Assembly (NCBI GenBank): GCA_039795895.1
Contig: JBDKKW010000001.1
Location: 18,837-82,836 of the forward strand
Direction: 5' to 3'
Length of the DNA stretch: 64,000 bases
DNA from: Candidatus Parcubacteria bacterium
GTDB taxonomy: Bacteria; Patescibacteriota; Minisyncoccia; Phycocordibacterales; JBAYGS01
The position numbers and the translations under genes were made by a program. Of the stretch, positions 3,970-64,000 are shown piece after piece. Every line of letters begins with the position of its first letter. Within the stretch, counting starts at the first letter, position 1. Below the pieces are notes generated by a model. That model saw only the letters and a list, made by a program, of their open reading frames with translations. It made no database searches and was not told where the DNA came from.

Positions 3970-4005
3970 CAGCTTAGAGCACAGCGATAAAAGCTGTGAC
4001 CCTAA
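3961..4005 (+). terminator. Hairpin GGGTCACAGCTT..AAGCTGTGACCC that includes the tRNA-Glu 3' end
   Basis: 12-bp perfect inverted repeat directly abutting the tRNA. No U-tract, so it could instead be an att-associated structure. Confidence 0.4.
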
Positions 4006-4099
4006 GTAGAGCGGGAGCGCTCTACGTCGGGGAATCGAAGCCTGTTTGAGTATTTTTTCAAGTGTAGTAACACGCAGAAAAAATCCAAACAGGGTACTG

Positions 4100-4216
4100 A
4101 CCGTGTAACGGTCGAGTCCCGTAGGGTTACCTCCGTGACCGAGAATGTATGCAAGGTTCCCTGTAGGAAAATTATAGCTGAACCCATTACCATGTCGTTT
4201 TCCGTAGAGTTATCAT
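4100..4216. repeat. Degenerate direct repeats of the tRNA-Glu 3' end (att-site remnants)
   Basis: cggtcgagtcccgtagggttacc (4108-4130), ggttccctgtagg (4154-4166) and ttccgtagagtta (4199-4211) all resemble tRNA-Glu ggggttcgattccccgtagggtca. Confidence 0.5.
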
Positions 4217-4226
4217 TTTACCCACA

Positions 4227-4793
4227 TTGTTTAAAATAAGAGCAAATTTTGTAGGAAGTTTTAAGGTTGGAGATAACATCAATCACAATCTGAGGGTCTT
4301 AACTTTACTGTATAGTTATTTTGAAAATGTGGATAATAATAAAAAGCGGTTACTTTGTAAACCAATCATATTGATAATCATCTCCATTATTGAAGCGGTA
4401 CTGCATGATTTTCACGGACGAATAAGAGCTTACACGAAAGAAGGGGTAAGTACTTTAGCAGAAGATGTAATTAATTATATAAGAGGTAAACATATTGATG
4501 AGTTAGAAAAATACATCATGAGTGCCAAAAAACACGATTTCTTTGATATGAATGATACAAAGTTCTACGATACATTAGATAGTTTTAGAAAATTGAGAAA
4601 CAGAATCCATATTCAAAATACAAAAAACGATTTTGAATCCGATGAATATGTGGCGTTTAATGAAAAACGTAAGGTTGTTGCAGAAAAGCTCCTCGAAAAA
4701 ACCTTAGTGGTGATGAGTGAAAAGTATTCAAGAAATTTTAATGGATATGTACAAGACTTTGAATTGCCATGGGACAAACACTTCCATGATTAG
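4227..4793 (+). CDS. Hypothetical protein in an AT-rich islet, HEPN-like (R-x6-H motif RKLRNRIH); possible Abi/toxin-type protein
   Basis: 188-aa ORF with TTG start. GC is far below the flanks. The HEPN call rests only on the Rx4-6H motif and size. Confidence 0.4.
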   Translation: MFKIRANFVGSFKVGDNINHNLRVLTLLYSYFENVDNNKKRLLCKPIILIIISIIEAVLHDFHGRIRAYTKEGVSTLAEDVINYIRGKHIDELEKYIMSAKKHDFFDMNDTKFYDTLDSFRKLRNRIHIQNTKNDFESDEYVAFNEKRKVVAEKLLEKTLVVMSEKYSRNFNGYVQDFELPWDKHFHD

Positions 4794-4911
4794 GGTGAAC
4801 TATTGTAATTTTGTATTATTTCGTAGTAATTCTGTGTTTATTGGGGCAGAATAGGTTGGTGTGTGTGGTTAGGGAGGTGAATGTGTTAGAATTAGTAGAA
4901 TAGTAATATTC

Positions 4912-5559
4912 TTGAAGTGTATGAATTTTATAAACGATGAATGGACTATAGAAAAGATCAAGGTAGGATTTGAACGTTTTAAGGCTCAAAATGGTAGACT
5001 TCCGACTGGACCAGAAATTGACCAATTAGATTATCTTCCATCAGCTCGACAAATTCAGAGGAAGTTTGGAGGTCTCGAAAAATTACGTTCAGAGCTTGGT
5101 TATGAATATACCCATTTTGGAAAAGGTAAATATAGAAGTGAAATAGCAAGTCGAATAAATGTTAAAGGTCGCCAGGTAGAAATTTCTCTAGAAAAGATTT
5201 TAAAAGAGAAGTTTCATGAAGTTTTTGTTCATACTGAAAAAGTTTTTGATGATTCAAAGAATAGAGTCGATTTTTATGTGTATTGTCCCGATGGAAATTT
5301 TGGTATTGATGTCTTTTATACAGGGACGATGAGGGATTTACAGAAAAATGTAAATATAAAGATTGATAAATATCAGAATTTTACCCACCGATTATATCTA
5401 GTAGTCGCAAATAATGATTTTGAGCAACAAGAACTTAACGGATATATGGTTTCAAAAAAGAAAGCTTTACCGCAAGATAGTACAATTGTGACACTTGATA
5501 CACTTTTTGAAATTATGAAAAATAAAAGAAGTTATCCCGATCCATTTATTACTAAATAG
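4912..5559 (+). CDS. Nuclease-like protein: N-terminal homing-endonuclease-associated (HNH_repeat-like) domain plus C-terminal restriction-endonuclease-like region
   Basis: WTIEKIKVGFERFKAQNGRLPTGPEIDQLDYLPSARQIQRKFGGLEKLRSELGY matches the W..E...GR.PT..E...LPS...I.RKFGG pattern. The C-terminal half reads VDFYVYCPDGNFGIDVFY. AT-rich. Confidence 0.5.
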   Translation: MKCMNFINDEWTIEKIKVGFERFKAQNGRLPTGPEIDQLDYLPSARQIQRKFGGLEKLRSELGYEYTHFGKGKYRSEIASRINVKGRQVEISLEKILKEKFHEVFVHTEKVFDDSKNRVDFYVYCPDGNFGIDVFYTGTMRDLQKNVNIKIDKYQNFTHRLYLVVANNDFEQQELNGYMVSKKKALPQDSTIVTLDTLFEIMKNKRSYPDPFITK

Positions 5560-5702
5560 TTATAAATATCTCTTCAACTTCACAAAAAAGTTAGATGAAA
5601 GTTCTTGTTAATGAATAGAAAAATACTAGTGACCGAAAGCGTACTCTCGATTCCTTGTAAGGTCACAATTAAAAAACCACCGGATTTCTCCGATGGTTGT
5701 GT

Positions 5703-22073: not shown

Positions 22074-22079
22074 TTCAAG

Positions 22080-22137: not shown

Positions 22138-22767
22138 ATGATCATCAGTTACCACGGAGCGGAATTTTTCAAGGTGCAGTTTGGCGAGACAGTGCTCGCG
22201 TTTAATCCGATTTCGAAAGAATCAAAATTACCCCAGACACGATTTGGGGCCGATATCGCATTGGTGTCGCTCAATACGCGAGATTATAATGGTATCGAGC
22301 AGGTCACTCACGGCGACCGGACTCCGTTTGCCATTGTCGGTCCCGGAGAATACGAAGTGAAAGGGGTGTTTATCAAAGGTATACAGTCAAAATCGATGGA
22401 GGGTGGAGAAGAACGTATTAATACAGTCTACTCAGTGACTCTTGAAAATATGAATTTGTGTTTTTTGGGTGCGCTTGGTGCCGAATTGTCTTCTGATGCA
22501 AAGGGAGCGATTGATGATATCGATATTTTGTTTGTGCCGGTCGGTGGTAACGGCGTGCTTTCTCCTGCGGAGGCGTACAAGCTTGCGGTAGCGCTCGAGC
22601 CAAAGTTGATCATCCCGATGCATTACGGGGAAGCCGGAAGCAAAGAGCTCAAGTCGTTTTTGAAAGAAGCGGGAGAAGAAGGGGTGAAGCCGATAGATAA
22701 GCTCACGCTCAAGAAAAAAGATTTGGAAGGGAAGGAGGCGGAAGTAGTTGTTTTAGACAGAGTCTAA
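22138..22767 (+). CDS. MBL-fold metallo-hydrolase family protein (UlaG-like)
   Basis: MIISYHGAEFFKVQFGETVLAFNP... resembles the MBL fold. It has no canonical HxHxDH motif. Confidence 0.6.
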   Translation: MIISYHGAEFFKVQFGETVLAFNPISKESKLPQTRFGADIALVSLNTRDYNGIEQVTHGDRTPFAIVGPGEYEVKGVFIKGIQSKSMEGGEERINTVYSVTLENMNLCFLGALGAELSSDAKGAIDDIDILFVPVGGNGVLSPAEAYKLAVALEPKLIIPMHYGEAGSKELKSFLKEAGEEGVKPIDKLTLKKKDLEGKEAEVVVLDRV

Positions 22768-22914
22768 GATAATTTCTAATTTCTAAATTATAATTTCTAA
22801 TGGGGGGGGGGAGAATGATTCGGACTCTGACTAAAAACCCCGCCCGAACGGACCAGAGTCCGCTCGGTACGGGCGGGTATCAGCAATAAACTTATAAACT
22901 ATCGACTTCTGCCA

Positions 22915-53927: not shown

Positions 53928-53992
53928 GTGGTTTTGAAAACGCAAAGGCGCAACACGGAGTGTTGCGCCTTTTTCTATTGTTCTAGTTTAAG

Positions 53993-56167
53993 CTATTTTG
54001 TTTTCTCTAGCTTGTGTGGGTTATGATTTGCACAAGCCTTATTACTACATCTCTCAGGAATCGTCTTCGTGCCATCCATCATGAGTGACTGACACATTGG
54101 GCAGATGTTGCCGGTAGGGCGAGCTTTGATTGCGTTTTTACACTTTGGATAATTTGAGCAACTGTAGAATGCACCAAAGCGTCCGCGTCGCTCGGTCATC
54201 ATGCCGTCTTTGCAGGTCGGACACTGTACGCCGGTCGAGTTTTGTCGCTCGAGCTCAGCGTCTTTTTTAATAAACTTACATTTTGGGTAGTTGTTGCAAG
54301 AAATAAATCGGCCAAATTTACCATCTCGCTCCACCAGCTTGCCGTCTTTACACTCAGGACACGCTTCGCCAGTCTCTTTTGGTCCGGCTAGTTCGATGCC
54401 GTCGATAGTGCGTGCACCCAGACAATCAGGAAAATCTTTGCACGACAGGAATTTGCCGGTCTTGCCGAGCTTGATGAGCATTCCTTTACCACACTTCGGA
54501 CACACATATTTTGCATCCGCCTCACCCATATCTGTAATCTTGGCAGTCTTCTCGCGAGACTTCACCTCTTTCAAAAATGGTTTGTAGAAATCGCCGAGCG
54601 TTTTTTCGTAGGTACGGTCGCCATTGGCAATATCATCGAGCTTGTCTTCCATCTCGGCGGTAAAAGTATCGCTGACATAATCTTTGAAATTGTCTTCAAT
54701 AAAAGTACTGACCACGTCTCCCGTGTCAGTCGGGCAGAGAGCTTTATTTATTTTACTCACATACCCACGCTCTTCGAGTGTCTTGATGATAGATGCGTAG
54801 GTCGACGGTCGGCCGATACCGCGCTTTTCGAGCTCTTTGACGAGGCCTGCTTCAGAATATCTTGGTGGCGGTTCGGTAGCTTTTTCTTCGGTGTGAATAT
54901 CGAGGAAAGTTAATTTTTCTCCGACGGTGACTTTTGGAAGCTCGACATCTTCGCCTCGAGCATCAGGGTCGGCGAGAAGCCAGCCAGGGGAGAGAGTACG
55001 TGAGCCGTTAGCAGAGAAATGAGGGATGGTCGCATCACTGCCGACAGCCACTTCGATTTTACTTCGCAAGATTTTTGCATCAGCCATCTGTGAGGCTATG
55101 GTGCGTTGCCAGATCAGCGTGTAGAGTGCTTGCTGTTCGGGAGTGCTTCCGGCTTCGTCGTGAGCCATATGGGTCGGACGGATTGCCTCGTGCGCTTCCT
55201 GTGCATTTTTACTTTTCTTGGTGAACGTGCGAGGACTGACCAGTTCTTTTCCGTATTTCTTTTCGATGGTTGCAAGGATTTGACCGACAGCCACCGTACT
55301 GAGGTTGGTACTATCAGTACGCATATAGGTGATAAGGCCGGCTTCGTAGAGCTTCTGGGCGACGCCCATGGTGCGAGAGGGAGCAAAGCCGAGGCGAGTA
55401 CTGGCGGTCTGCTGGAGGGTCGAGGTGATGAACGGCGCTTTTGGTGAGCGCTTAGCTTCGGTCTCCGTGACATCTATCACCACCCACGAATCTTTTTTGC
55501 CGGCAGTGACGATTTTGTCTACTAGATTTTTGTCTCGAGGCTCTTCGACACAAGTCAAAAGCAATGCAACATTTTTTGCTGTCTTGGTGTCGGCGGTAAT
55601 GACCCAGAATTTCTCGGAGATAAACGCGCGGATTTCTCGCTCGCGTTCCATAATGATACGGAGCGCGGGGGACTGCACGCGACCAGCCGAAAGACCGTAG
55701 CGTACTTTTTTCCAAATCAAACCAGAGAGGTCGTAGCCTACCAAACGGTCGAGCACACGTCGGGCTTCTTGAGCTTTGCGGAGATTTTGATCAATGTCTC
55801 GGGGGTGTTTGATGGCTTCGATGACAGCGTCTTTGGTAATTTCATAAAAGACTACTCGGCGAGGTTTTTTGAGGCCGGTAGCTTCGGCGATGTGCCACGA
55901 GATGGCTTCACCTTCTCGGTCGGGGTCTGTCGCAAGGAGGATTTCGTCTGCTTTTTTGGCGAGGGATTTGATTTCTGCCACTACTGATTCTTTGCCTTTT
56001 GAGATTTCGTAGGTCGGTACGAAGCCCGCATCAATATCGATTGCCTTTTTATTACTCTTTGGTAAATCACGAATGTGACCGACCGACGCCACCACTTTGT
56101 ATGCGCCATCCAAATATTTTGAAATAGTTTTTGCTTTCGCCGGCGACTCAACGATCAATAATTTCAT
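53993..56167 (-). CDS. topA: DNA topoisomerase I with C-terminal zinc-ribbon repeats
   Basis: Toprim N-terminus MKLLIVESPAKAKTISKYL; active-site region; C-terminal CPKCGKG..C..C and CPECKDGKL.. CxxC ribbons. Start trimmed to MKLL. Confidence 0.95.
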   Translation of the reverse strand: MKLLIVESPAKAKTISKYLDGAYKVVASVGHIRDLPKSNKKAIDIDAGFVPTYEISKGKESVVAEIKSLAKKADEILLATDPDREGEAISWHIAEATGLKKPRRVVFYEITKDAVIEAIKHPRDIDQNLRKAQEARRVLDRLVGYDLSGLIWKKVRYGLSAGRVQSPALRIIMEREREIRAFISEKFWVITADTKTAKNVALLLTCVEEPRDKNLVDKIVTAGKKDSWVVIDVTETEAKRSPKAPFITSTLQQTASTRLGFAPSRTMGVAQKLYEAGLITYMRTDSTNLSTVAVGQILATIEKKYGKELVSPRTFTKKSKNAQEAHEAIRPTHMAHDEAGSTPEQQALYTLIWQRTIASQMADAKILRSKIEVAVGSDATIPHFSANGSRTLSPGWLLADPDARGEDVELPKVTVGEKLTFLDIHTEEKATEPPPRYSEAGLVKELEKRGIGRPSTYASIIKTLEERGYVSKINKALCPTDTGDVVSTFIEDNFKDYVSDTFTAEMEDKLDDIANGDRTYEKTLGDFYKPFLKEVKSREKTAKITDMGEADAKYVCPKCGKGMLIKLGKTGKFLSCKDFPDCLGARTIDGIELAGPKETGEACPECKDGKLVERDGKFGRFISCNNYPKCKFIKKDAELERQNSTGVQCPTCKDGMMTERRGRFGAFYSCSNYPKCKNAIKARPTGNICPMCQSLMMDGTKTIPERCSNKACANHNPHKLEKTK

Positions 56168-56257
56168 GTGGGTAGTATTGCACGATATGTGAATGATTGG
56201 CAAATCTTAGGTAGTTGGTATACTTAATCTATATTGTTGTAAATAATAAAATTCTCT

Positions 56258-56440
56258 ATGTTTAATATTATAGGTTTAGTGATTGTGGGTTATTTTTTGT
56301 ATGGATTTCACAAAGACGACACATTAAAAGAATTTGAGAATAAAAAATTAAAAGATTTGACGATTAATGATATAGGCTCAATTCTTTGGCTAGTATTTCT
56401 GATACTGATTCTTGGTAGACTTTTACAAAATCTATTTTAA
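56258..56440 (+). CDS. Small two-TM membrane protein (60 aa) in an AT-rich islet
   Basis: MFNIIGLVIVGYFLYGF...ILWLVFLILILGRLL. About 30% GC. Confidence 0.35.
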   Translation: MFNIIGLVIVGYFLYGFHKDDTLKEFENKKLKDLTINDIGSILWLVFLILILGRLLQNLF

Positions 56441-56451
56441 TCTAAATAGTA

Positions 56452-56480
56452 ACAGCGGTTCGCAAGAACAGTTCTCGCGA
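56452..56480. promoter_or_regulatory. Palindrome TTCGCAAGAACAGTTCTCGCGAA (GAAC-N1-GTTC core)
   Basis: A similar palindrome GCAAGAACCGTTCTTGC sits at 56963-56979, on the other side of ORF 56506..56958. Confidence 0.5.
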
Positions 56481-56505
56481 AGATTTTCCTAGCTTCAGAA
56501 ATTTT

Positions 56506-56958
56506 ATGACCAAGAATAAGACAAAAGAAAATGAAGAAATGCTCAAGGCATTAGCTGATTATGGCAAAATCTCACAAGAAGCGTGGTCAATTCAAAAAGA
56601 TAAGAGTTTGACTCAACTAGATGTCATTAAATTGAGGTTTGAAAATAGGATCAATACCCTCGATTATCTTCTAGATTTTTTTAAAAACTTGTTGACCATT
56701 GTACTCACTGGACTCATCGGTTCCTTTGCTGTCACTAATAGTGTAGAAATAATAGAACTCCGTTTTTATCTTTGTTGGCTGGGCGCGGTGTTGCTTGTTA
56801 CGGTGTATCTGTTATTTTTGAGAAGAAAGTCTACTGTTCAATTGATGCTTTCTATGATTGAAAGCTCGTTTGAGAATATTCAATTTTTACATGATGGGCG
56901 CCTAAGTGAGATAGAGAGTAGAAAAAAAATCTTCACCGATACAATTCTTGGTAAATAA
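56506..56958 (+). CDS. Hypothetical membrane protein (150 aa) in an AT-rich islet between topA and dprA
   Basis: Central TM helices. AT-rich. Flanked by the related palindromes. Confidence 0.45.
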   Translation: MTKNKTKENEEMLKALADYGKISQEAWSIQKDKSLTQLDVIKLRFENRINTLDYLLDFFKNLLTIVLTGLIGSFAVTNSVEIIELRFYLCWLGAVLLVTVYLLFLRRKSTVQLMLSMIESSFENIQFLHDGRLSEIESRKKIFTDTILGK

Positions 56959-57023
56959 TGATTAGCAAGAACCGTTCTTGCTAAGGGTTTAGAAATTATA
57001 ATTTAGGAATTAGATGTTTTCTT

Positions 57024-57899
57024 TTACATTAGCCTGATTTCCCCCTCGCTTTCCTTAATCATCCCTTTAATCTCCATCATTGAAAGAAGAATGCTGACTT
57101 TTTGGGTGGGAAAGCCGGAGGCACGGACGAGGGAGTCGCGGGTGCATGGAGTGGCGAGCAGGCACAGGAGAGTAAGCTCGTCTTCATTTGCGTCGGCGTA
57201 CTGTTTTTCAAAGGGGAGTGTGCTTTGGCCTTCAAGACCAAGAGCGATCAGTAAATCTTCGACCGAGGCGATAGGAGTGGCACCAAGTTTCAAAAGCAAA
57301 TGCGGGCCGGTGGAATTTTGGGAGTAGATTGAGCCAGGCACGGTGAGTACATCGCGATTGTAATCGGTAGCGAGGCGAGCAGTGATCAGTGTGCCGGATT
57401 TTTGTTCCGCTTCAATAATCAGCACGGCTTTTGAAAGTCCTGCCATAATGCGATTGCGTTGCGGAAAGCTGTAAGGGGTCGCTTTGAACGTCGGATCAAA
57501 TTCTGAAAGCAAGCATCCACCCGCTTCAACAATTTCTTTTGCTAGATTTTTGTGCGAAGCAGGGTAGAGGGCACTTGGGTCGAGTCCTGATCCGGGCACG
57601 GCGATGGTTTTGAGATTATTTGCGAGGGCTGACCGATGGGCGATAGCGTCGATACCGAGCGCGAGGCCAGAGACGATCACTACCGGCTTGCCTCGCAGTC
57701 CCGCAATGAGCATTTCGCAGACTTCTTTTCCATACGGACTGTATTTTCTGGCACCGACCACGCAGAGGTGTATCGAATCTTCAGGGGGAAGCTCGCCAAC
57801 AATAAAAAGCTGTTCGGGAGGCTTAGGAATTTCCAAAATCGGTTTTGGAAATTTATTTTTGGGGAGCGAAATGATGCGTTTGTCTTTTGAGAACGACAT
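57024..57899 (-). CDS. dprA: DNA processing protein DprA (Smf)
   Basis: Rossmann-like DprA core ..VVGARKYSPYGKEVCEMLIAGL..VSGLALGIDAIAHRSAL..TIAVPGSGLD.. Confidence 0.85.
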   Translation of the reverse strand: MSFSKDKRIISLPKNKFPKPILEIPKPPEQLFIVGELPPEDSIHLCVVGARKYSPYGKEVCEMLIAGLRGKPVVIVSGLALGIDAIAHRSALANNLKTIAVPGSGLDPSALYPASHKNLAKEIVEAGGCLLSEFDPTFKATPYSFPQRNRIMAGLSKAVLIIEAEQKSGTLITARLATDYNRDVLTVPGSIYSQNSTGPHLLLKLGATPIASVEDLLIALGLEGQSTLPFEKQYADANEDELTLLCLLATPCTRDSLVRASGFPTQKVSILLSMMEIKGMIKESEGEIRLM

Positions 57900-57934
57900 G
57901 CTAGAGTAAGTATAGCATTGTTCCTTTTAAAACT

Positions 57935-58234
57935 ATGAACCCTCCAATCTACCTGGGTGAGTTTGGTATGTACCTCCGTGCGTTCATTGATGGCGGTGAG
58001 ATTGTCCTCGCTCGTCAGCATTTTGTAAAAACGTATCGTGGTGTTGAGTCGGGTACTCACGTGTTAGCTTCTGCTGTTCCAGCTCACCGATCGCATGATC
58101 TAGAACATCTCGATAGGGTGTGTAGTCAACTCTTTGGGATTACCGCGCAACAATTACTACAGGAAACCCCGGTAGTATCTCATCCGGCCACTTCGGGTGA
58201 GTATTTCATTGAGTGTGATGTTGAGGATCCCTAA
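57935..58234 (+). CDS. Hypothetical small protein (99 aa), tandem paralog A
   Basis: F..Y..AF..GGE.VLAR..F.... pattern shared with the downstream ORF. Confidence 0.4.
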   Translation: MNPPIYLGEFGMYLRAFIDGGEIVLARQHFVKTYRGVESGTHVLASAVPAHRSHDLEHLDRVCSQLFGITAQQLLQETPVVSHPATSGEYFIECDVEDP

Positions 58235-58245
58235 ATTATTGTGTT

Positions 58246-58533
58246 ATGAAGTCAAAGACTTTCTTTGAAGTTTTTCAGCACTACTTTCTGGCTTTTGTTT
58301 ATGCCGGAGAAACCGATCTTGCCAGAAAGATTTTTCGGAGACTGAGACGGCGTATTCAGGCTCATCGTGGCATGTACGACCCCTCAGTCTGGGACTTGAG
58401 CGAATCACGGTTCTTTGATGAACTTGCAATGAGTTCAGTTTTGAAAAATTCACCCGAGCCAGTACAGCGAGAATCTGTATATGTGCCGTATGGGGGAGGA
58501 TGGTGTGATGGCTCTCCTTGTAATGATGCCTGA
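58246..58533 (+). CDS. Hypothetical small protein (95 aa), tandem paralog B
   Basis: ..FQHYFLAFVYAGETDLARKIFRRL.. shows similarity to 57935..58234. Confidence 0.4.
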   Translation: MKSKTFFEVFQHYFLAFVYAGETDLARKIFRRLRRRIQAHRGMYDPSVWDLSESRFFDELAMSSVLKNSPEPVQRESVYVPYGGGWCDGSPCNDA

Positions 58534-58539
58534 TTTCAG

Positions 58540-58588
58540 AGGCCCCTCGCCGACGCTTTGGTCGGACGAGGGGCTCTTTCTTTATCTT
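58540..58588 (+). terminator. Terminator GAGGCCCCTCGccgacgctttggtcggaCGAGGGGCTCTTTCTTT
   Basis: Nested hairpin plus T-run. Confidence 0.55.
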
Positions 58589-58671
58589 AATACCTTATAC
58601 TTTTTACTTTATACCTACCCAACAGCCTCTATTTTCCTTATTTTCACTATTCTGCTATTATAAGTCCTACT

Positions 58672-59946
58672 ATGCTCGACATTAAGTTTATCCGCGACAA
58701 CAAAGAGATTATCGCTCTCGGTGCCAAAAAGAAGCATCTCAATTTTAAGGTGGACGATTTGATCAAGGCCGACGATGAACGGCGCAAGCTTATGACTTCC
58801 CTTGAAGCCAAGCGTGCTGAGCAAAACCTCGTCAGCGCCAAAATCCCAACCGCATCTGTCGAAGAAAAAGCCTCACTCCTTGTGGCGATGAAAGAAGTCA
58901 AAGAATCTGCCCAAAAAGAAGAAGAAAAATTGAAAGAAGTGATGAAAAAGTGGCAGACCTTGATGCTTGCGGTGCCAAATGTTCCCGATATGTCCGTGCC
59001 GGAAGGCGAGACCGACAAAGAAAATGTCGAAATTAAGACACACGGCACTATTCCCGTATTTGATTTTGATCCAAAGTCACACATCGAGCTCATGGAAAAG
59101 CTTGGTATGGCTGATTTTGAAAAGGGAGTAGAAGTGGCGGGTTTCCGAGGCTACTTTTTGAAAGGTGACGGAGCGCGATTAAACTTTGCGCTCTGGCAAT
59201 TTGTGCTCGACCATTTCGCTACCAAAGCCGACTTTGAGCCAATGCTCGTGCCATCTCTCGTGCGCAAAGATACATTGCTCGGTACTGGCTACTTGCCTCA
59301 AGGTGAAGATGATTTGTATAAAACACAGGACAATGACTATCTAGCGGGCACCGCGGAAGTAGCAACTATGAGCTACTTTGCCGAGACTACTCTCGCGAAA
59401 GCTGACCTACCAAAAAAAGTACTGGCTTTCTCTCCAAGTTTCCGTCGCGAAGCGGGGAGTCATAGCAAAGATACTAAAGGGCTCAAGCGTGTGCATGAAT
59501 TTTTCAAATTTGAACAAGTGATCTTGTGCGAAGCCAGTCATCAGGTGAGTGTCGAGCAACACGAAGCTCTTCTGGTAAATGCCGAGGAATTACTCCAACG
59601 TCTCAATCTCCCATATCACGTAGTGGTCAATTGTGGTGGTGATCTCGGCCTTGGCCAAGTAAAAAAATACGATGTGGAGACTTGGGTACCATCTCAGCGA
59701 GCGTGGTGCGAGACACATTCGTGCTCGTACTTCCATGATTTCCAAACTCGTCGACTCAATATTCGCTACAAAGATACCGACGGTAAAATCCGTTTTGCCC
59801 ACTCGCTCAACAATACCGCGCTCGCCACTCCTCGCATTTTAATTTCACTGATTGAAAACAACCAGCAGAAAGACGGTTCGATTTATATTCCTGAAGCGTT
59901 GCAAAAATATATGGGCAAGGCAGTCATCGGTCCCGCAAAACGCTAG
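58672..59946 (+). CDS. serS: Serine--tRNA ligase
   Basis: N-terminal coiled-coil arm; class II motifs ..FRREAGSHSKDTKGLKRVHEFFKFEQV.. and ...GRTWVAI.. Confidence 0.95.
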   Translation: MLDIKFIRDNKEIIALGAKKKHLNFKVDDLIKADDERRKLMTSLEAKRAEQNLVSAKIPTASVEEKASLLVAMKEVKESAQKEEEKLKEVMKKWQTLMLAVPNVPDMSVPEGETDKENVEIKTHGTIPVFDFDPKSHIELMEKLGMADFEKGVEVAGFRGYFLKGDGARLNFALWQFVLDHFATKADFEPMLVPSLVRKDTLLGTGYLPQGEDDLYKTQDNDYLAGTAEVATMSYFAETTLAKADLPKKVLAFSPSFRREAGSHSKDTKGLKRVHEFFKFEQVILCEASHQVSVEQHEALLVNAEELLQRLNLPYHVVVNCGGDLGLGQVKKYDVETWVPSQRAWCETHSCSYFHDFQTRRLNIRYKDTDGKIRFAHSLNNTALATPRILISLIENNQQKDGSIYIPEALQKYMGKAVIGPAKR

Positions 59947-59982
59947 ACGTTAGATTTAAAACAGACTCTAGTTCCTTTTTCT

Positions 59983-60828
59983 ATGGCATTTGCCAGTACC
60001 ACACAAAATAAGAATACCGCCATCAAACGTCGAAAGAAGAATCGGCTCTACCTCGGTATTTTTCTCATAGTATTGCTTGTTGCAATACTTTTTGCTGTGT
60101 CGGTTGTGGTCAGTCGGATGGATCAATTTCAAATCAAAGATGTGGTGATCTCTGGCAACACAGTCACTGACGGTACTCTGATCGAAGATGTGGTGCGTTC
60201 GGGTATGAAAGATACCTATTTTTGGATGTTTCCAAAATCAAACAGTTTTCTTTTTCCTGAAAAAGCGATTACGTCTGAAATGCTTTCTGAATTTGCTCGT
60301 GTCGAGAGAGTAGAATTGGTTCGGACCAATCTCTCAACTCTCGCGGTCAATATCACCGAACGAAAGCCAAAGGCCCTCTGGTGTGAAGGATTAAAGCCTT
60401 TTTTGACGGGGACGAGTATTGCTGATTGTTATTTCTTGGATGCAAGCGGTCTCATCTTTAGTCGAGCACCTGATTTTTCGCGAAATGTGTTTGTACGCTA
60501 TTTGGGAGAGATATCCGCCACGACGACTATCGGTGGTGTGTATGGCGACGGACATTTCCCCGAGTATGACTTTTTTGTGCAATCGCTCGTTGCTGAGCAT
60601 CTCCCCGTTACCGATTTGATTGTGCATAAAGATGGCAATCGAGAACTATATTTGTCTTCGGGTGTGAAGATTTTGTTTGATAACCGCCAAGATTTGAGTG
60701 TGGTGCTTACGAATATTAAGTTGATTATTGAGAAGGATGAGTTGTCATTGCTGTCAGTGACACCGAGATTTGAATATGTAGACTTGCGCTACGGCAACAA
60801 GGTCTTTTACAAAAATCGGCAAAATTAA
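59983..60828 (+). CDS. FtsQ/DivIB-like cell-division protein (TM plus POTRA-like domain)
   Basis: N-terminal basic segment plus TM helix, then QIKDVVISGNTVTDGTLIEDVV.. The family call is tentative. Confidence 0.5.
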   Translation: MAFASTTQNKNTAIKRRKKNRLYLGIFLIVLLVAILFAVSVVVSRMDQFQIKDVVISGNTVTDGTLIEDVVRSGMKDTYFWMFPKSNSFLFPEKAITSEMLSEFARVERVELVRTNLSTLAVNITERKPKALWCEGLKPFLTGTSIADCYFLDASGLIFSRAPDFSRNVFVRYLGEISATTTIGGVYGDGHFPEYDFFVQSLVAEHLPVTDLIVHKDGNRELYLSSGVKILFDNRQDLSVVLTNIKLIIEKDELSLLSVTPRFEYVDLRYGNKVFYKNRQN

Positions 60829-61021
60829 CTCGTCTGCTTTGTTGCGTTCAGGATTTTCTATTCGCCGTACGTCTAGTACGACTCAGTCGAAAATCCTTCC
60901 GCGCCTGATTCAGCAGAATCACCTACTGGGTCCCATCCGAGTTAATTTTGCCGATTTTAGGAATACAAGCGATTTAAGTAAAAAGAAAAGCCACACGTAT
61001 GCTCGTGTGGCTGTAAGTAAA

Positions 61022-61465
61022 CTACCTCAGACTTTCCGGAGGCTTCTGCATAAAGGTGACCCACATTCCCATATAGGCCATCTTTCCGTTGTAGAGAGCG
61101 ATCTCGGGGGAGACCGAAACGACCGGACCAACGATTTTTGCGGTGCTGTCGAAGGCATTGAGCATCACCTTGTAATCGGGAAGTGGAATCCGTAGACCAT
61201 TGGTGGCGTCTACTTGGTAGAAGTAGAAGACATTGCCCTGCTGGAGTGATCCAAGTTTACCACCATTTTGGGTGAGTGCTTCGCCATCCTTGAGAGTCAG
61301 TGATTTCTCATGTTCAAGCTCGAGTTGCCGAAGTGCTTTTGCGTCGTGGCTTTTTATTGCATGATACGTTACGAATCCTGTAAGTGTGAATAACGCCAAG
61401 ACAGCAATGGTTATTGGTAGAGCCGCTGGAATTGAGAGCTCGAAGCTCCTTGTTTGTGGGGACAT
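61022..61465 (-). CDS. Membrane-anchored hypothetical protein
   Basis: Start trimmed to MSPQTRSFELSIPAALPITIAVLALFTLTGFV.. (one TM). Confidence 0.45.
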   Translation of the reverse strand: MSPQTRSFELSIPAALPITIAVLALFTLTGFVTYHAIKSHDAKALRQLELEHEKSLTLKDGEALTQNGGKLGSLQQGNVFYFYQVDATNGLRIPLPDYKVMLNAFDSTAKIVGPVVSVSPEIALYNGKMAYMGMWVTFMQKPPESLR

Positions 61466-61573
61466 GATGTATAGCCTTTCTTTATTTGAGTTAAACGAAC
61501 TTTCCGGAGTCACTATACATAAATACCCGGATATTTGTCAATCGTATGTATTTTGTGTTACTGTGAGTGTCTT

Positions 61574-62617
61574 ATGATTTCTGGATTCTGGAAAAACCTC
61601 AAAAAACCCTTTTTTGTACTGGCGCCGATGGCGGATGTGACCGACTGCGTCTTTCGGGCGCTGATTGCAAAATATTCTAATCACGGAAAAGCTTCTGGTG
61701 GGCCGGATGTCTTTTGGACCGAATTCGTATCGGCGGATGGTCTATGTAATCCACACGGCAGAGAACACCTTTTGATTGACCTGAAATATTCTGAAGCGGA
61801 GCGTCCGATTGTAGCCCAGCTCTTTGGAAGCAATGTAGAGAATATGGAAAAAGCTTCGGCATTTGTGGCGAGTCTCGGCTTTGATGGTATTGATATTAAT
61901 ATGGGTTGTCCTGACAAAACGATTGAAAAGCAGGGAGCTGGAGCGGCAATGATCAAAGATTTATCAAAAGCGAAAGAGATTATTCGCGCCGTAAAGCGTG
62001 GCGCGCCGAATCTACCTGTCTCAGTAAAGACTCGCATTGGCTACAACAAAAATGAAATTGATACTTGGGTACGGGGATTGCTCGAAGAAGATTTGTCAGC
62101 ACTCACGATTCACGCCCGCACTCGAAAAGAGATGTCGATGGTTCCGGCACGGTGGGAGCACGTTCGTGAGGTGGTGGAATTAAAAAACAAAATGGGTAAG
62201 GACACACTGATTATTGGCAATGGCGATGTGCTCGATAGTGCTGATGCTCGAAAGAAGGTGAGTGAGACTGGATGCGACGGAGTGATGCTTGGGCGGGCGA
62301 TTTTCGGCAATCCATGGCTCTTTGACCAGACTAAAGGGATTGCGGTGGGGCAGAGTGTGGAAGATGATCGAGTTGGACTGGGCTCAGGGAATCATAAAGT
62401 GACTGTATCGGAGCGACTGCGAGTACTCGTGGAGCATGCTGAGGAATTTGAGCGAGTATTATGTGAGCACAAAAGCTTTGCAGTAATGAAAAAGCATTTC
62501 AAGGCGTACGTAAACGGTTTTGATGGCGCAAAAGAGTTACGAATGCAACTAATGAGCACAGAAGACTCAAAACAAGTGAGGGGAATCGTGGATAGTTTTC
62601 TAAAAAAGGCTCTATAG
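61574..62617 (+). CDS. tRNA-dihydrouridine synthase (Dus family)
   Basis: FVLAPMADVTDCVFRAL..., catalytic-Cys region ..DINMGCP.., and TIM-barrel FMN-binding motifs. The specific Dus paralog is not identifiable from sequence alone. Start trimmed to MISGFWKN. Confidence 0.85.
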   Translation: MISGFWKNLKKPFFVLAPMADVTDCVFRALIAKYSNHGKASGGPDVFWTEFVSADGLCNPHGREHLLIDLKYSEAERPIVAQLFGSNVENMEKASAFVASLGFDGIDINMGCPDKTIEKQGAGAAMIKDLSKAKEIIRAVKRGAPNLPVSVKTRIGYNKNEIDTWVRGLLEEDLSALTIHARTRKEMSMVPARWEHVREVVELKNKMGKDTLIIGNGDVLDSADARKKVSETGCDGVMLGRAIFGNPWLFDQTKGIAVGQSVEDDRVGLGSGNHKVTVSERLRVLVEHAEEFERVLCEHKSFAVMKKHFKAYVNGFDGAKELRMQLMSTEDSKQVRGIVDSFLKKAL

Positions 62618-62659
62618 AGCCATATTTATGCTATTGCGGGTGGTGGGGTGATAAAGTGC

Positions 62660-63042
62660 TTGACTTTTATATATGAGTATGCTATGATACTCTCCAGACA
62701 GTCGAGTTGGTTTCTGAATCGAAGGGATTTACCTAAAGGTGAATCAATCAGAAGCTCGCACTGTGTTGTACAGCCTAACCGGCCCACTCGCGAAATTCGC
62801 GCCTGAGAAGGAGGGTAAAAACACACGGAAGCCAGTTTAAGGTAAGATCAATCCTCAGAAAGAGATCAAAACCTACTGGCCTTGTCGACAAAGTTCGTTA
62901 AAAAATTATCAGATAAATAATCTGATAAAGAGTAACGGGTCGGATAAGCCGACAAAACTCTCACCATTAACCGACCAGAGACTGGCGCGCCACATCGAAG
63001 GCCCCGCCAAGTCTCCGGTCACAACAAAGAAAGGAGGTAAAA
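62660..63042 (+). promoter_or_regulatory. Promoter TTGACT-N17-TATGAT plus a long (about 350-nt) untranslated leader; candidate cis-regulatory RNA
   Basis: cttgacttttatatatgagtatgctatgat, then a long ORF-free stretch ending in the strong SD aaaggaggtaaaaATG. Confidence 0.4.
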
Positions 63043-63273
63043 ATGTTCTATGAAAGACTGTGGTTGCGGTTGCACGGAGCGTTTGTGGAGGTAGGCGAAT
63101 TTCTCGCTCACCTCCAGACGATTTTGCGGAACCGTGTTCGGGATATCAAGAAAAGCATTTGCGATTCTGCCATTGTGCAGAAGGGTGCTTGCTTGAATGT
63201 CCCCATCAGTCGGGCGGGTCTGTCGGAGCTGTCGCTCTGGCCGATTAAGCCATCGTGGAAAATCCTGAGTTGA
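63043..63273 (+). CDS. Small hypothetical protein (76 aa) with an unusually strong SD
   Basis: AAAGGAGG 6 nt upstream of the ATG; MFYERLWLRLHGAFVEVGEFLAHLQ... Confidence 0.45.
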   Translation: MFYERLWLRLHGAFVEVGEFLAHLQTILRNRVRDIKKSICDSAIVQKGACLNVPISRAGLSELSLWPIKPSWKILS

Positions 63274-63494
63274 GTCTGGGTGTCGGCGTTGGACCGAAGG
63301 TATAGAATGATGGGTATCTTGCGCCCCGGTGGGCCCTTGATATAACTGTCGGACTGTATTCAGTAGGAAACATGACACAGAAAAATGTGTCCCAACGACG
63401 CCCTAGTCCCAAACAACCACCCCGTTTTGCAATCTCGTTCCTACGAGAAAGCGAAGCGGGGTTTTCTTTTATCTGAATGGTGTCGTTGTTCTGA

Positions 63495-63540
63495 AAACCC
63501 CAGAAAATTGCCCAAAGATTTTCTGGGGTTTCTTATTTTT
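63495..63540 (+). terminator. Terminator AAACCCCAGAAAATtgcccaaagATTTTCTGGGGTTTCTTATTTTT
   Basis: Hairpin plus T-run. A second weaker element AAGCGGGGTTTTCTTTT lies at about 63455. Confidence 0.6.
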
Positions 63541-63640
63541 ATATATTTTAATTTATACATGATAATTCTCCTGAAAGATTGACAATATCTATCAATGTGT
63601 ATATAGTGCACTCAGAAAACGTCCTTTCCAGAAAAAAACT

Positions 63641-64000
63641 ATGAAAAAGCTGAACTCGGTGGCCATTCTTTTGGCCTTTCTCTCACTCGTGTCTCCCTGT
63701 TTTGGGGCGACAAACTTCGTTTTGACCTCGGTCTCGGACCCGGTCAAAACCACTTTTACGGTGGCGAGCAGTAACGTCCTGTTGTCGAGCTGGAATCTCC
63801 AGATCTCGACCAATGGAGAGCCGTTTGCCGATGTGGTGGGGACCATCAATTTCGGCTCGGTGGACAATAAAAGCGTAGGTTTTTATGTGCTCCATCCCAC
63901 AACCTACGGGTTTTATCGCGGAAAGACGGTGCTTTCGGGCACCAATGCTTACTCGACCACAAACCTGTTGTTTACGACTCAGACGGCGGTTACTCAAGGG
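63641..64000 (+). CDS. Secreted hypothetical protein, 3'-partial (runs off right edge); not in the ORF track
   Basis: ATG at 63641: MKKLNSVAILLAFLSLVSPCFGATNFVLTSVSDPVKTTFTVASSNVLLSSWNLQISTNGEPF..., with no stop before the window end. Confidence 0.5.
   Translation, partial: MKKLNSVAILLAFLSLVSPCFGATNFVLTSVSDPVKTTFTVASSNVLLSSWNLQISTNGEPFADVVGTINFGSVDNKSVGFYVLHPTTYGFYRGKTVLSGTNAYSTTNLLFTTQTAVTQG

Follow-up and report, generated by a model that had tools for sequence, protein, structure and literature searches.

Repetitive extragenic palindromic (REP) sequences and their REP-associated tyrosine transposases (RAYTs) reportedly form systems in Proteobacteria that were treated by Nunvar in 2010 and Ton-Hoang in 2012. 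These REP and RAYT/TnpA(REP) systems of Proteobacteria (Bertels and Rainey, 2011, PMC3116915; Quentin, 2018, PMC6006769) are the closest described counterparts of the locus considered here. Y-x3-NP is the tyrosine context of class-2 TnpA(REP) proteins, while IS200 transposases have Y-x3-Q (PMC6006769). Our subject is a pair of palindromes, REP1 and REP2, in an AT-rich islet between topA and dprA in a 64-kb stretch of DNA from a Candidatus Parcubacteria bacterium (the window; all coordinates are window positions unless a locus is named). We consider it probable that both palindromes are copies of a REP-like element in a strain-specific islet, members of a low-copy family tied to a RAYT-type Y1 transposase, because copies of the repeat flank a Y1/HUH transposase gene and are dispersed over many contexts. 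Repeat and Y1 gene together are a REP/RAYT-type system, with the reservation of low copy number. The 23-mer family is apparently previously undescribed, and its transposase apparently widespread in Parcubacteria; in the full-text literature we found no paper that gives this repeat sequence, nor any that connects REPs or RAYTs with Parcubacteria or the candidate phyla radiation (CPR).

REP1 (TTCGCAAGAACAGTTCTCGCGAA, 56459-56481) is a degenerate copy of the C-G subtype and REP2 (TTAGCAAGAACCGTTCTTGCTAA, 56962-56984) a perfect copy of the A-T subtype. The initial annotation had already reported two related palindromes bracketing the larger open reading frame (ORF) of the islet; the sequences are present, though its coordinates were off by 4 and 2 nt, and the inner part of REP2, GCAAGAACCGTTCTTGC at 56965-56981, belongs to a palindrome that is 23 nt long as a whole. 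The two copies are identical at 19 of 23 bases, and one of the differences is compensatory, C-G to A-T at positions 3/21. REP1 has two deviations from the perfect form, an A at its centre and T18C, the latter leaving A.C opposed on the + strand and a G.U pair on the - strand; REP1 folds at -7.7 kcal/mol on the + strand and as a perfect 10-bp stem on the - strand. REP2, the only terminator-like site reported by the scan and that on the - strand only, has a - strand fold of z = -3.4 against shuffled sequences. REP1 lies 18 nt past the stop codon of the smaller islet gene, ORF60, and 24 nt before the ATG of the larger one, ORF150, and REP2 lies 3 nt past the ORF150 stop and, with respect to the opposite strand, 39 nt past the dprA stop; from REP2 it is 2-5 nt to the right edge of the islet.

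The core AGAACNGTTCT occurs at three sites in the window (16699, 56465 and 56968) against 0.13 expected, and the 23-mer family pattern, allowing up to three mismatches, finds the two islet sites only, against 0.00 expected. We rejected the 16699 site as a third copy: some 15 of 22 arm positions match, it forms no stable hairpin, and it is probably due to chance. For comparison, a TopA-based scan taking one genome per species provided 80 Paceibacteria/Parcubacteria loci (920 kb), 66 of which hold both topA and dprA. AGAACNGTTCT, full copies and 11-nt half-sites are all absent from these 80 loci; a clade-wide regulatory motif was rejected because core and half-sites are both missing there.

The family became visible in metagenome contigs, which were scanned with the 23-mer pattern TTMGCAAGAACNGTTCTYGCKAA, with at least 120 matching stretches. 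The consensus TTMGCAAGAAC-S-GTTCTTGCKAA is present in at least 120 contigs where about 0.5 would be expected by chance, a figure that we estimated ourselves by taking a probability of 4.5e-13 per position over a total of the order of 1e12 bases. Among the matches listed are 137 copies in 107 distinct flanking contexts; the flanks are unconserved except for T at -1 and A at +24, and the extended repeat is a hairpin-forming sequence of 23-25 nt, (T)TTMGCAAGAAC-S-GTTCTTGCKAA(A). Positions 3/21 in the 137 copies listed are C-G in 91 (TTCGC...GCGAA), A-T in 41 (TTAGC...GCTAA) and mixed in 5, and the 23-mer of REP2, read on either strand, makes up 38 of them. With a relaxed set of 154 copies, pair 9-15 is A-T in 144 and G-C in 9, with no one-sided change, and pair 1-23 is T-A in 121 and C-G in 4; the base pairs of the repeat covary. 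Most of the copies listed (104/137) lie outside ORFs of at least 80 aa, the median distance from a gene 3' end is 46 nt, and nested partial copies often adjoin full ones. A single subtype is found at 17 of 19 multi-copy loci, whereas REP1 and REP2 are of different subtypes, which argues against a local duplication as their origin.

Viral contigs gave no match to the 23-mer. A 17-mer scan of viral sequences was uninformative, its 50 single matches being about the chance level for about 15.5 specified bases. One orthologous intergenic site with an intact 23-mer recurs in about 11 contigs (L150, L154, L160-L163, L166, L171, L187, L196 and L225), whose flanks, judged by eye, are clearly diverged; this suggests that individual copies persist vertically over the long term, with the qualification that the contigs were ascertained by an exact pattern. 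This recurrent context is not an rRNA operon, as had been considered, and is actually an orthologous locus in a glycosyltransferase region.

About ten contigs first held two copies of the repeat 718-808 bp apart, enclosing a gene for a protein of about 225 aa with the motifs MFRKDPFITGEYYHIYNRG...LMTNHFHLL...YIHLNPL. This protein scores 25.6 bits against Pfam Y1_Tnp (gathering cut-off 23), and its only NCBIfam match is REP_Tyr_transpos, at 28.6 bits, below the equivalog cut-off of 80. NHFH and YIH(I/L)NP are invariant in the 17-20 transposase sequences compared. Every full-length gene (23/23) has a repeat copy 27-52 nt upstream of its ATG, mostly at 28 nt: 18 have it at 27-29 nt, and the 5 with a distance of 42-52 nt have a partial copy intercalated. 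In addition, 21 of the 23 have a downstream copy, at -23 to +55 nt relative to the stop codon. The spacer before the ATG carries an extended -10 ending about 6 nt before the start codon, and the TTGCGA/TTGCTA of the repeat sits 17 nt upstream of that hexamer, in the -35 position. The Y1 genes thereby show a leaderless design like that of topA, described below.

The transposase family comprises 4192 protein clusters at E <= 1e-10, named 'transposase' in Parcubacteria, Nomurabacteria, Zambryskibacteria, Paceibacterota and Minisyncoccia. The exact protein P0021 was met in 21 places from many samples (10 shown and 11 grouped as similar), and because its neighbours are identical in all of them, the gene is single-copy at a fixed locus and does not behave like an insertion sequence (IS), as far as this one representative goes. 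The flanking repeat copies around P0021 were confirmed in L265. The same contig has, between the Y1 unit and the next gene, an ORF-free stretch of about 420 nt (L265 4780-5200) with GC-rich inverted repeats. Within the family, the final residue of FRLD[N/D], together with N/R or K four residues on, splits perfectly with the repeat subtype, 7 versus 14 loci in a small sample: A-T goes with N and (N,R), and C-G with D and K. Since residues and repeat subtype covary while the subtypes are interspersed in the protein clustering, the pattern suggests that the protein recognises the hairpin directly.

Compared with the REP/RAYT systems of Proteobacteria, the family has in common a short extragenic palindrome scattered at gene 3' ends in many contexts, a single-copy HUH/Y1 gene with palindrome copies on both sides, an NHxH motif with the class-2 Y-x3-NP tyrosine context, and a covariation of subtype and protein that recalls how each tnpA(REP) has its own REP family. 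It differs in its perfect 23-nt dyad with a 1-nt centre, in that no REPIN doublets are seen and nested partial copies stand beside full ones instead, in that one repeat is common to many candidate orders, in the score of its protein against the NCBIfam RAYT model, which as cited above is far below the cut-off, and in its host, Patescibacteria, for which we found no such system described. The IS200/IS605 elements and the palindrome-associated transposable elements (PATEs) offer a second comparison. As in those, a Y1 HUH transposase lies between hairpin ends, in a unit of about 770 bp like IS200, and as in PATEs some hairpin-gene-hairpin units here carry non-transposase genes. In contrast to IS200/IS605, where the left and right hairpins differ, both ends carry the same perfect palindrome, the tyrosine is in a Y-x3-NP and not a Y-x3-Q context, and the exact protein stays at one fixed locus in 21/21 places while solo hairpins are scattered without the gene.

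Several observations count against a REP-like element. Classical REPs number hundreds per genome, whereas we estimate a handful of copies per genome of about 1 Mb, and the density is low: at distances beyond 2 kb from the seed copy, 400 kb of sequence contained 3 further sites, or about 0.075 per 10 kb. The GTAG/CGTC tag of REPs is missing here. The metagenome pattern was built from the two islet copies, so that ascertainment accounts for part of the perfect core conservation. The + strand fold of REP1 is weak (z = +0.3), and both copies are atypical as terminators, with AT-rich stems and only 3-4 U after them. No homolog of the transposase was found in the 64-kb window or the 80 related loci. 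The AlphaFold model of the transposase is of low quality (pLDDT, the predicted local distance difference test score, 38.5), and sequence and profile searches of the PDB with this protein did not reach E. coli TnpA(REP), returning only spurious PARN matches.

The islet that holds the two copies (56209-56986, 32.4% GC) replaces the ancestral dprA-topA spacer. On its left is topA (53993-56167, - strand), encoding 724 aa from the ATG with Pfam Topoisom_bac (4.5e-122), Toprim and three Zn_ribbon_Top1 domains, and its product is 62-95% identical to its counterparts in the 80 Paceibacteria loci; the mechanical ORF is longer, with a TTG start at 56203. On its right is dprA (57024-57899, - strand), encoding 291 aa with DNA_processg_A (3e-65) and DprA_WH. 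The initial annotation had described an AT-rich islet between these genes, and the composition bears this out, at 31.7% GC over 56204-57023 against 49-50% in the flanking genes (topA 49.3%, dprA 50.3%) and 46.0% in the whole window. Against the closest relative, L001 (TopA 95% and DprA 90% identical), blastn homology ends at 57016 and picks up again at 56208. An AT-rich motif 3' of the dprA stop codon, common to the window, L257 (DprA 94% identical) and L001, extends the homology to about 56987, and because it is conserved in both relatives we place the right islet edge at about 56986. The motif, a repeated TTTCTAA aligned in all three sequences (56990-57015, - strand), is then flank and not islet, and the islet measures 778-807 bp, depending on whether its right edge is set at 56986 or 57015.

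An independent Logan assembly (SRR35181295) is identical to the window over 56106-64000. Neither DNA nor protein matches to the islet were found in the 80 relatives, and in a search for a donor the DNA similarity to other loci was confined to the 23-mer. No target-site duplication is visible beside either palindrome, where terminal inverted repeats were also checked, and an Rfam search of 55800-57400 gave no RNA family match; exact-sequence look-ups of DprA and TopA returned no record. A decayed transposase gene in the islet was considered and rejected, since tblastn gave no signal with the threshold relaxed to E = 100. We read the islet as a strain-specific insertion or replacement of foreign composition at dprA-topA. 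An earlier proposal that the palindromes are the ends of a miniature insertion holds in spirit, in that the palindromes belong to a transposase-tied dispersed repeat.

Two further regions of the window resemble parts of this locus. A second AT-rich islet at 4000-5600 (GC about 0.32, against 0.46 for the window) contains two orphan + strand ORFs, 4227-4793 and 4912-5559, that have no Pfam family, and it holds no 23-mer copy. The 26-nt AT-rich motif after dprA has a second copy with 2 mismatches at 22774-22799 (TTTCTAA three times around TATAAT), which is also 3' of a stop codon, that of the unrelated ORF 22138-22767; it is directly followed by a run of 11 G (22802-22812) and, shortly downstream, by a GC-rich inverted repeat at 22844-22867.

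The gene order serS/dprA/topA is kept in relatives. The statement that topA and dprA are normally adjacent was sound: among the 66 related Paceibacteria loci with both genes, 36 have a gap of at most 130 nt, 6 have one of 131-300 nt, and in the other 24 it spans 341-2969 nt. Compared by blastp, the ORFs that fill these long gaps match neither one another nor ORF60 or ORF150 at 1e-3 or better, and the larger ones in the closest relatives have no Pfam family. Judged by eye from translations, other long gaps appear to hold Phd/RelE-like and PemK-like toxin-antitoxin genes, a pilin, a sigma factor, TrpRS with ThyX, and G6PD. Since these ORFs are mutually unrelated, we conclude that the dprA-topA junction repeatedly gains different cargo in Paceibacteria. 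In L264 (1085-1593) and in L001 the ORFs recognised by eye are a Phd/YefM-like and RelE/ParE-like pair; the L001 pair is preceded by its own 32-nt palindrome, ACCTAAAGATTATCTT|AAGATAATCTTTAGGT (4502-4533), of which the L264 version has one extra centre base.

Another long hairpin lies 3' of dprA in L257, L001, L264 and L003, with the form ..CAT(C/A)TCAGC(T/C)ATAGCTGA.. (..TCAGCYATAGCTGA..), and because relatives have this different hairpin after dprA, REP2 appears to occupy the position of the ancestral dprA terminator. The palindromes with the core TCAGC(T/C)ATAGCTGA are perfect in L001 and L003 and are found in the last 30 nt of each of L257-L263, at 4437-4476 in L001, at 1028-1065 in L264, and at 4729-4772 and 5447-5480 in L003. 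The L257 sequence terminates within its palindrome, and the Logan contigs with the gene for the 94%-identical DprA, seven in number, all stop at one offset, 148 nt past the stop codon; the probable cause of this common end is that the assembler broke off at a perfect palindrome.

The islet carries two genes, a 60-aa two-transmembrane (TM) peptide and a 150-aa membrane protein in the first description, and both were recovered with two predicted TM segments each (two hydrophobic 17-mers above Kyte-Doolittle 1.6). ORF60 (56258-56440, + strand; segments at residues 1-17 and 39-55) is called as a gene in two assemblies; it has no detectable relative, and family searches gave sub-threshold matches only. 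ORF150 (56506-56958, + strand), a 'hypothetical protein' of 'Candidatus Parcubacteria bacterium' in its NCBI record, matches only itself among 5.8e9 clustered proteins, and belongs to no family in Pfam, PADLOC, PHROG or NCBIfam. Its JGI label, 'type III secretor...', was set aside as most likely derived from a sub-threshold FlhB-type match (14 bits; cut-off 24.4). Among 1.84e9 representatives searched exhaustively with HMMER a single relative turned up, P0002 (178 aa, E 2.5e-16), with 36-37% identity over 130 residues and the same two-TM core, and because of this one relative we regard ORF150 as a real but very rare protein. P0002 is encoded (L132 3225-7989) in a tight same-strand run, after a gene for an HNH nuclease-like protein of 235 aa and before a MazG-like gene; the run continues with a DUF2075 helicase of Nhi/AbiO-like type, and PemK lies beyond it. 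This setting hints at something like a defence island.

Consensus scans place promoter-like sites at the left edge of the islet. The site for topA (56174-56203, - strand) has a -35 TTGCCA and an extended -10, TG-N-AATACT. In five genomes, the window and L001-L004, this -10 (TTTGCC .. TGTAATACT) ends 6-7 nt before the ATG, with ATTTGC..TG(T/C)AATACT..ATG conserved outside the islet, and because of this short distance the topA mRNA would be leaderless. A divergent site on the + strand (56197-56224, TTGGCA-16-TATACT with TG, 10/12 matches) has a -35 that overlaps the topA -35 and a -10 inside the islet, and may drive transcription of ORF60 and ORF150.

Based on these features we can propose how the REP-like copies came to be here and what they do. 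By analogy with TnpA(REP) and IS200, the transposase would bind the hairpin in single-stranded DNA and cut and rejoin beside it, so that copies spread. REP1 and REP2 would have arrived with acquired DNA or been inserted into it, and would now act as 3'-end hairpins. REP1, in the ORF60-ORF150 spacer, could be an attenuator or mRNA stabiliser, and REP2 could be a two-way stop between the convergent ORF150 and dprA, in place of the ancestral dprA terminator. ORF60 and ORF150 would be small membrane proteins expressed from a promoter divergent to the conserved leaderless topA promoter. A terminator or stabiliser role for the two copies is suggested by their position and by the behaviour of REPs elsewhere.

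Of the other explanations the one that survives best, though we find it unlikely, is that REP1-ORF150-REP2 (56459-56984, 526 bp) is a mobilised PATE-like cassette, with a passenger in place of the transposase, moved in trans into an islet that already bore ORF60. The layout of REP1, 24 nt, ATG to stop, 3 nt and REP2, with the repeats 503 bp apart, mirrors that of the transposase unit (about 28 nt; 718-808 bp), and only 2-5 nt separate REP2 from the islet edge. Similar brackets surround further genes that do not encode a transposase: a 239-aa orphan in L239 (4307-5173), a NUDIX gene in L256 and, in L224 (8289-9129), a 76-aa ORF with hydrophobic stretches. However, neither a second copy of the cassette nor an empty site was found, the sole ORF150 homolog (L132-L135) has no repeat nearby, and REP1 lies 250 nt away from the left edge of the islet. 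The two ends are also of different subtypes, C-G in REP1 and A-T in REP2, which departs from the single subtype of 17 of the 19 multi-copy loci. Two successive units of ORF and imperfect palindrome, with small orphan genes, also bring integron attC sites to mind, but the palindromes here are 23 nt and not >= 55 nt and lack RYYYAAC/GTTRRRY core sites; we rejected an integron gene cassette because the palindromes are too short and without core-site consensus, and because no integrase or attI adjoins them.

It is very unlikely that the palindromes are operators for the CI/LexA-like repressor encoded at 1373, or for another dimeric regulator of the islet genes. The initial annotation had likened the GAAC/GTTC half-sites to SOS or Cheo-type boxes, and the inverted half-sites do resemble the LexA Cheo box (CGAACRNRYGTTYC). 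Dyad symmetry is kept by compensatory changes, as a homodimer site would show, the repeat overlaps the transposase -35 at a fixed distance and may be autoregulatory, and -10-like hexamers precede both islet copies. The spacer, however, is 1 nt and not the 4 nt of the Cheo box, GAAC-N4-GTTC occurs nowhere in the window, and the dyad spans 23 nt and its copies follow stop codons. The repeat is not associated with SOS genes or S24 repressors and is tied to a transposase instead; its 107 contexts are mostly at gene 3' ends, and both islet copies follow stop codons. Nor does the idea of LexA/CI-type sites agree with the absence of the palindrome from 920 kb of relatives that share the conserved genes. 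The 1373 gene (HTH_3/Peptidase_S24) has no upstream copy. Its upstream region has two perfect AAGCAA-N2-TTGCTT palindromes instead, at 1248 and 1290, with two more TTAAGCAA half-sites at 1326 and 1354, all within 130 nt upstream of the gene; four of the five TTAAGCAA occurrences in the window sit at 1240-1365. Judging from these sequences, they are likely the operators of the 1373 repressor itself, and they differ from the islet palindromes. The CIRCE operator (TTAGCACTC-N9-GAGTGCTAA) has similar outer bases and was rejected on length and context.

Equally improbable, in our view, is that the two palindromes are ordinary local intrinsic terminators unconnected to mobile DNA, alike by chance or by local duplication. 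Both copies are 3' of stop codons, and REP2 was flagged as terminator-like. The genome also has other pairs of related stems, at 22077/23284 and 13852/17077. These native terminator pairs (13852-13876/17077-17101 and 22077-22101/23284-23310) have nearly identical stems, and one pair differs by a compensatory change; related hairpins recur independently of the 23-mer family. However, native terminators here, such as that at 53944-53972, have a GC-rich stem between an A-tract and a T-tract, a design that the islet copies lack; the stems of the copies are AT-rich by comparison, with + strand tails of 3-4 U. The 23-mer recurs in over 100 contexts unrelated to each other and borders a Y1 transposase gene, its 107 distinct flanks mean that the metagenome matches are not one locus resampled, and the two copies come from two subtypes of the family, so that they are no local duplication. 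The initial annotation had tied ordinary terminators to an islet and palindromes present identically in all relatives with no other copies of the motif, and we found the islet in none of them and many copies of the motif elsewhere.

Neisseria uptake sequences often occur as inverted pairs in terminators, but we give almost no credence to DNA-uptake-type signals linked to the neighbouring competence gene dprA: location beside dprA is the only feature in favour, whereas the density, 2 copies in the 64-kb window and about 0.075 per 10 kb in other sequence, is far below that of uptake sequences, and copies elsewhere are unlinked to dprA.

With the palindromes probably being REP-like copies, several consequences follow for this family and its hosts. 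The 23-mers are not to be read as SOS or regulator boxes in annotation, and perfect palindromes of this kind can break short-read assemblies at such junctions. The junction between dprA and topA is conserved and receives orphan membrane proteins, toxin-antitoxin pairs and even housekeeping genes. The Patescibacteria (CPR) have tiny streamlined genomes with few recognised mobile elements, and their strain-specific gene turnover is poorly understood. An unlikely extension is low-copy gene shuffling by the Y1 enzyme and its hairpin: hairpin-gene-hairpin units such as REP1-ORF150-REP2 would leave their site and re-enter elsewhere as single-stranded cassettes moved in trans, giving rise to strain-specific islets at tolerant junctions like dprA-topA. 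If this is true, it would bring cassette exchange to organisms otherwise poor in mobile elements, and the hairpin would double as a portable -35 element and terminator. The correspondence between FRLD[N/D] and A-T or C-G at hairpin positions 3/21 is a testable recognition code for a HUH enzyme. Finally, a REP/RAYT-type system extends across Parcubacteria, with more than 4000 clusters labelled only 'transposase' and a cognate hairpin that has apparently gone unnoticed.

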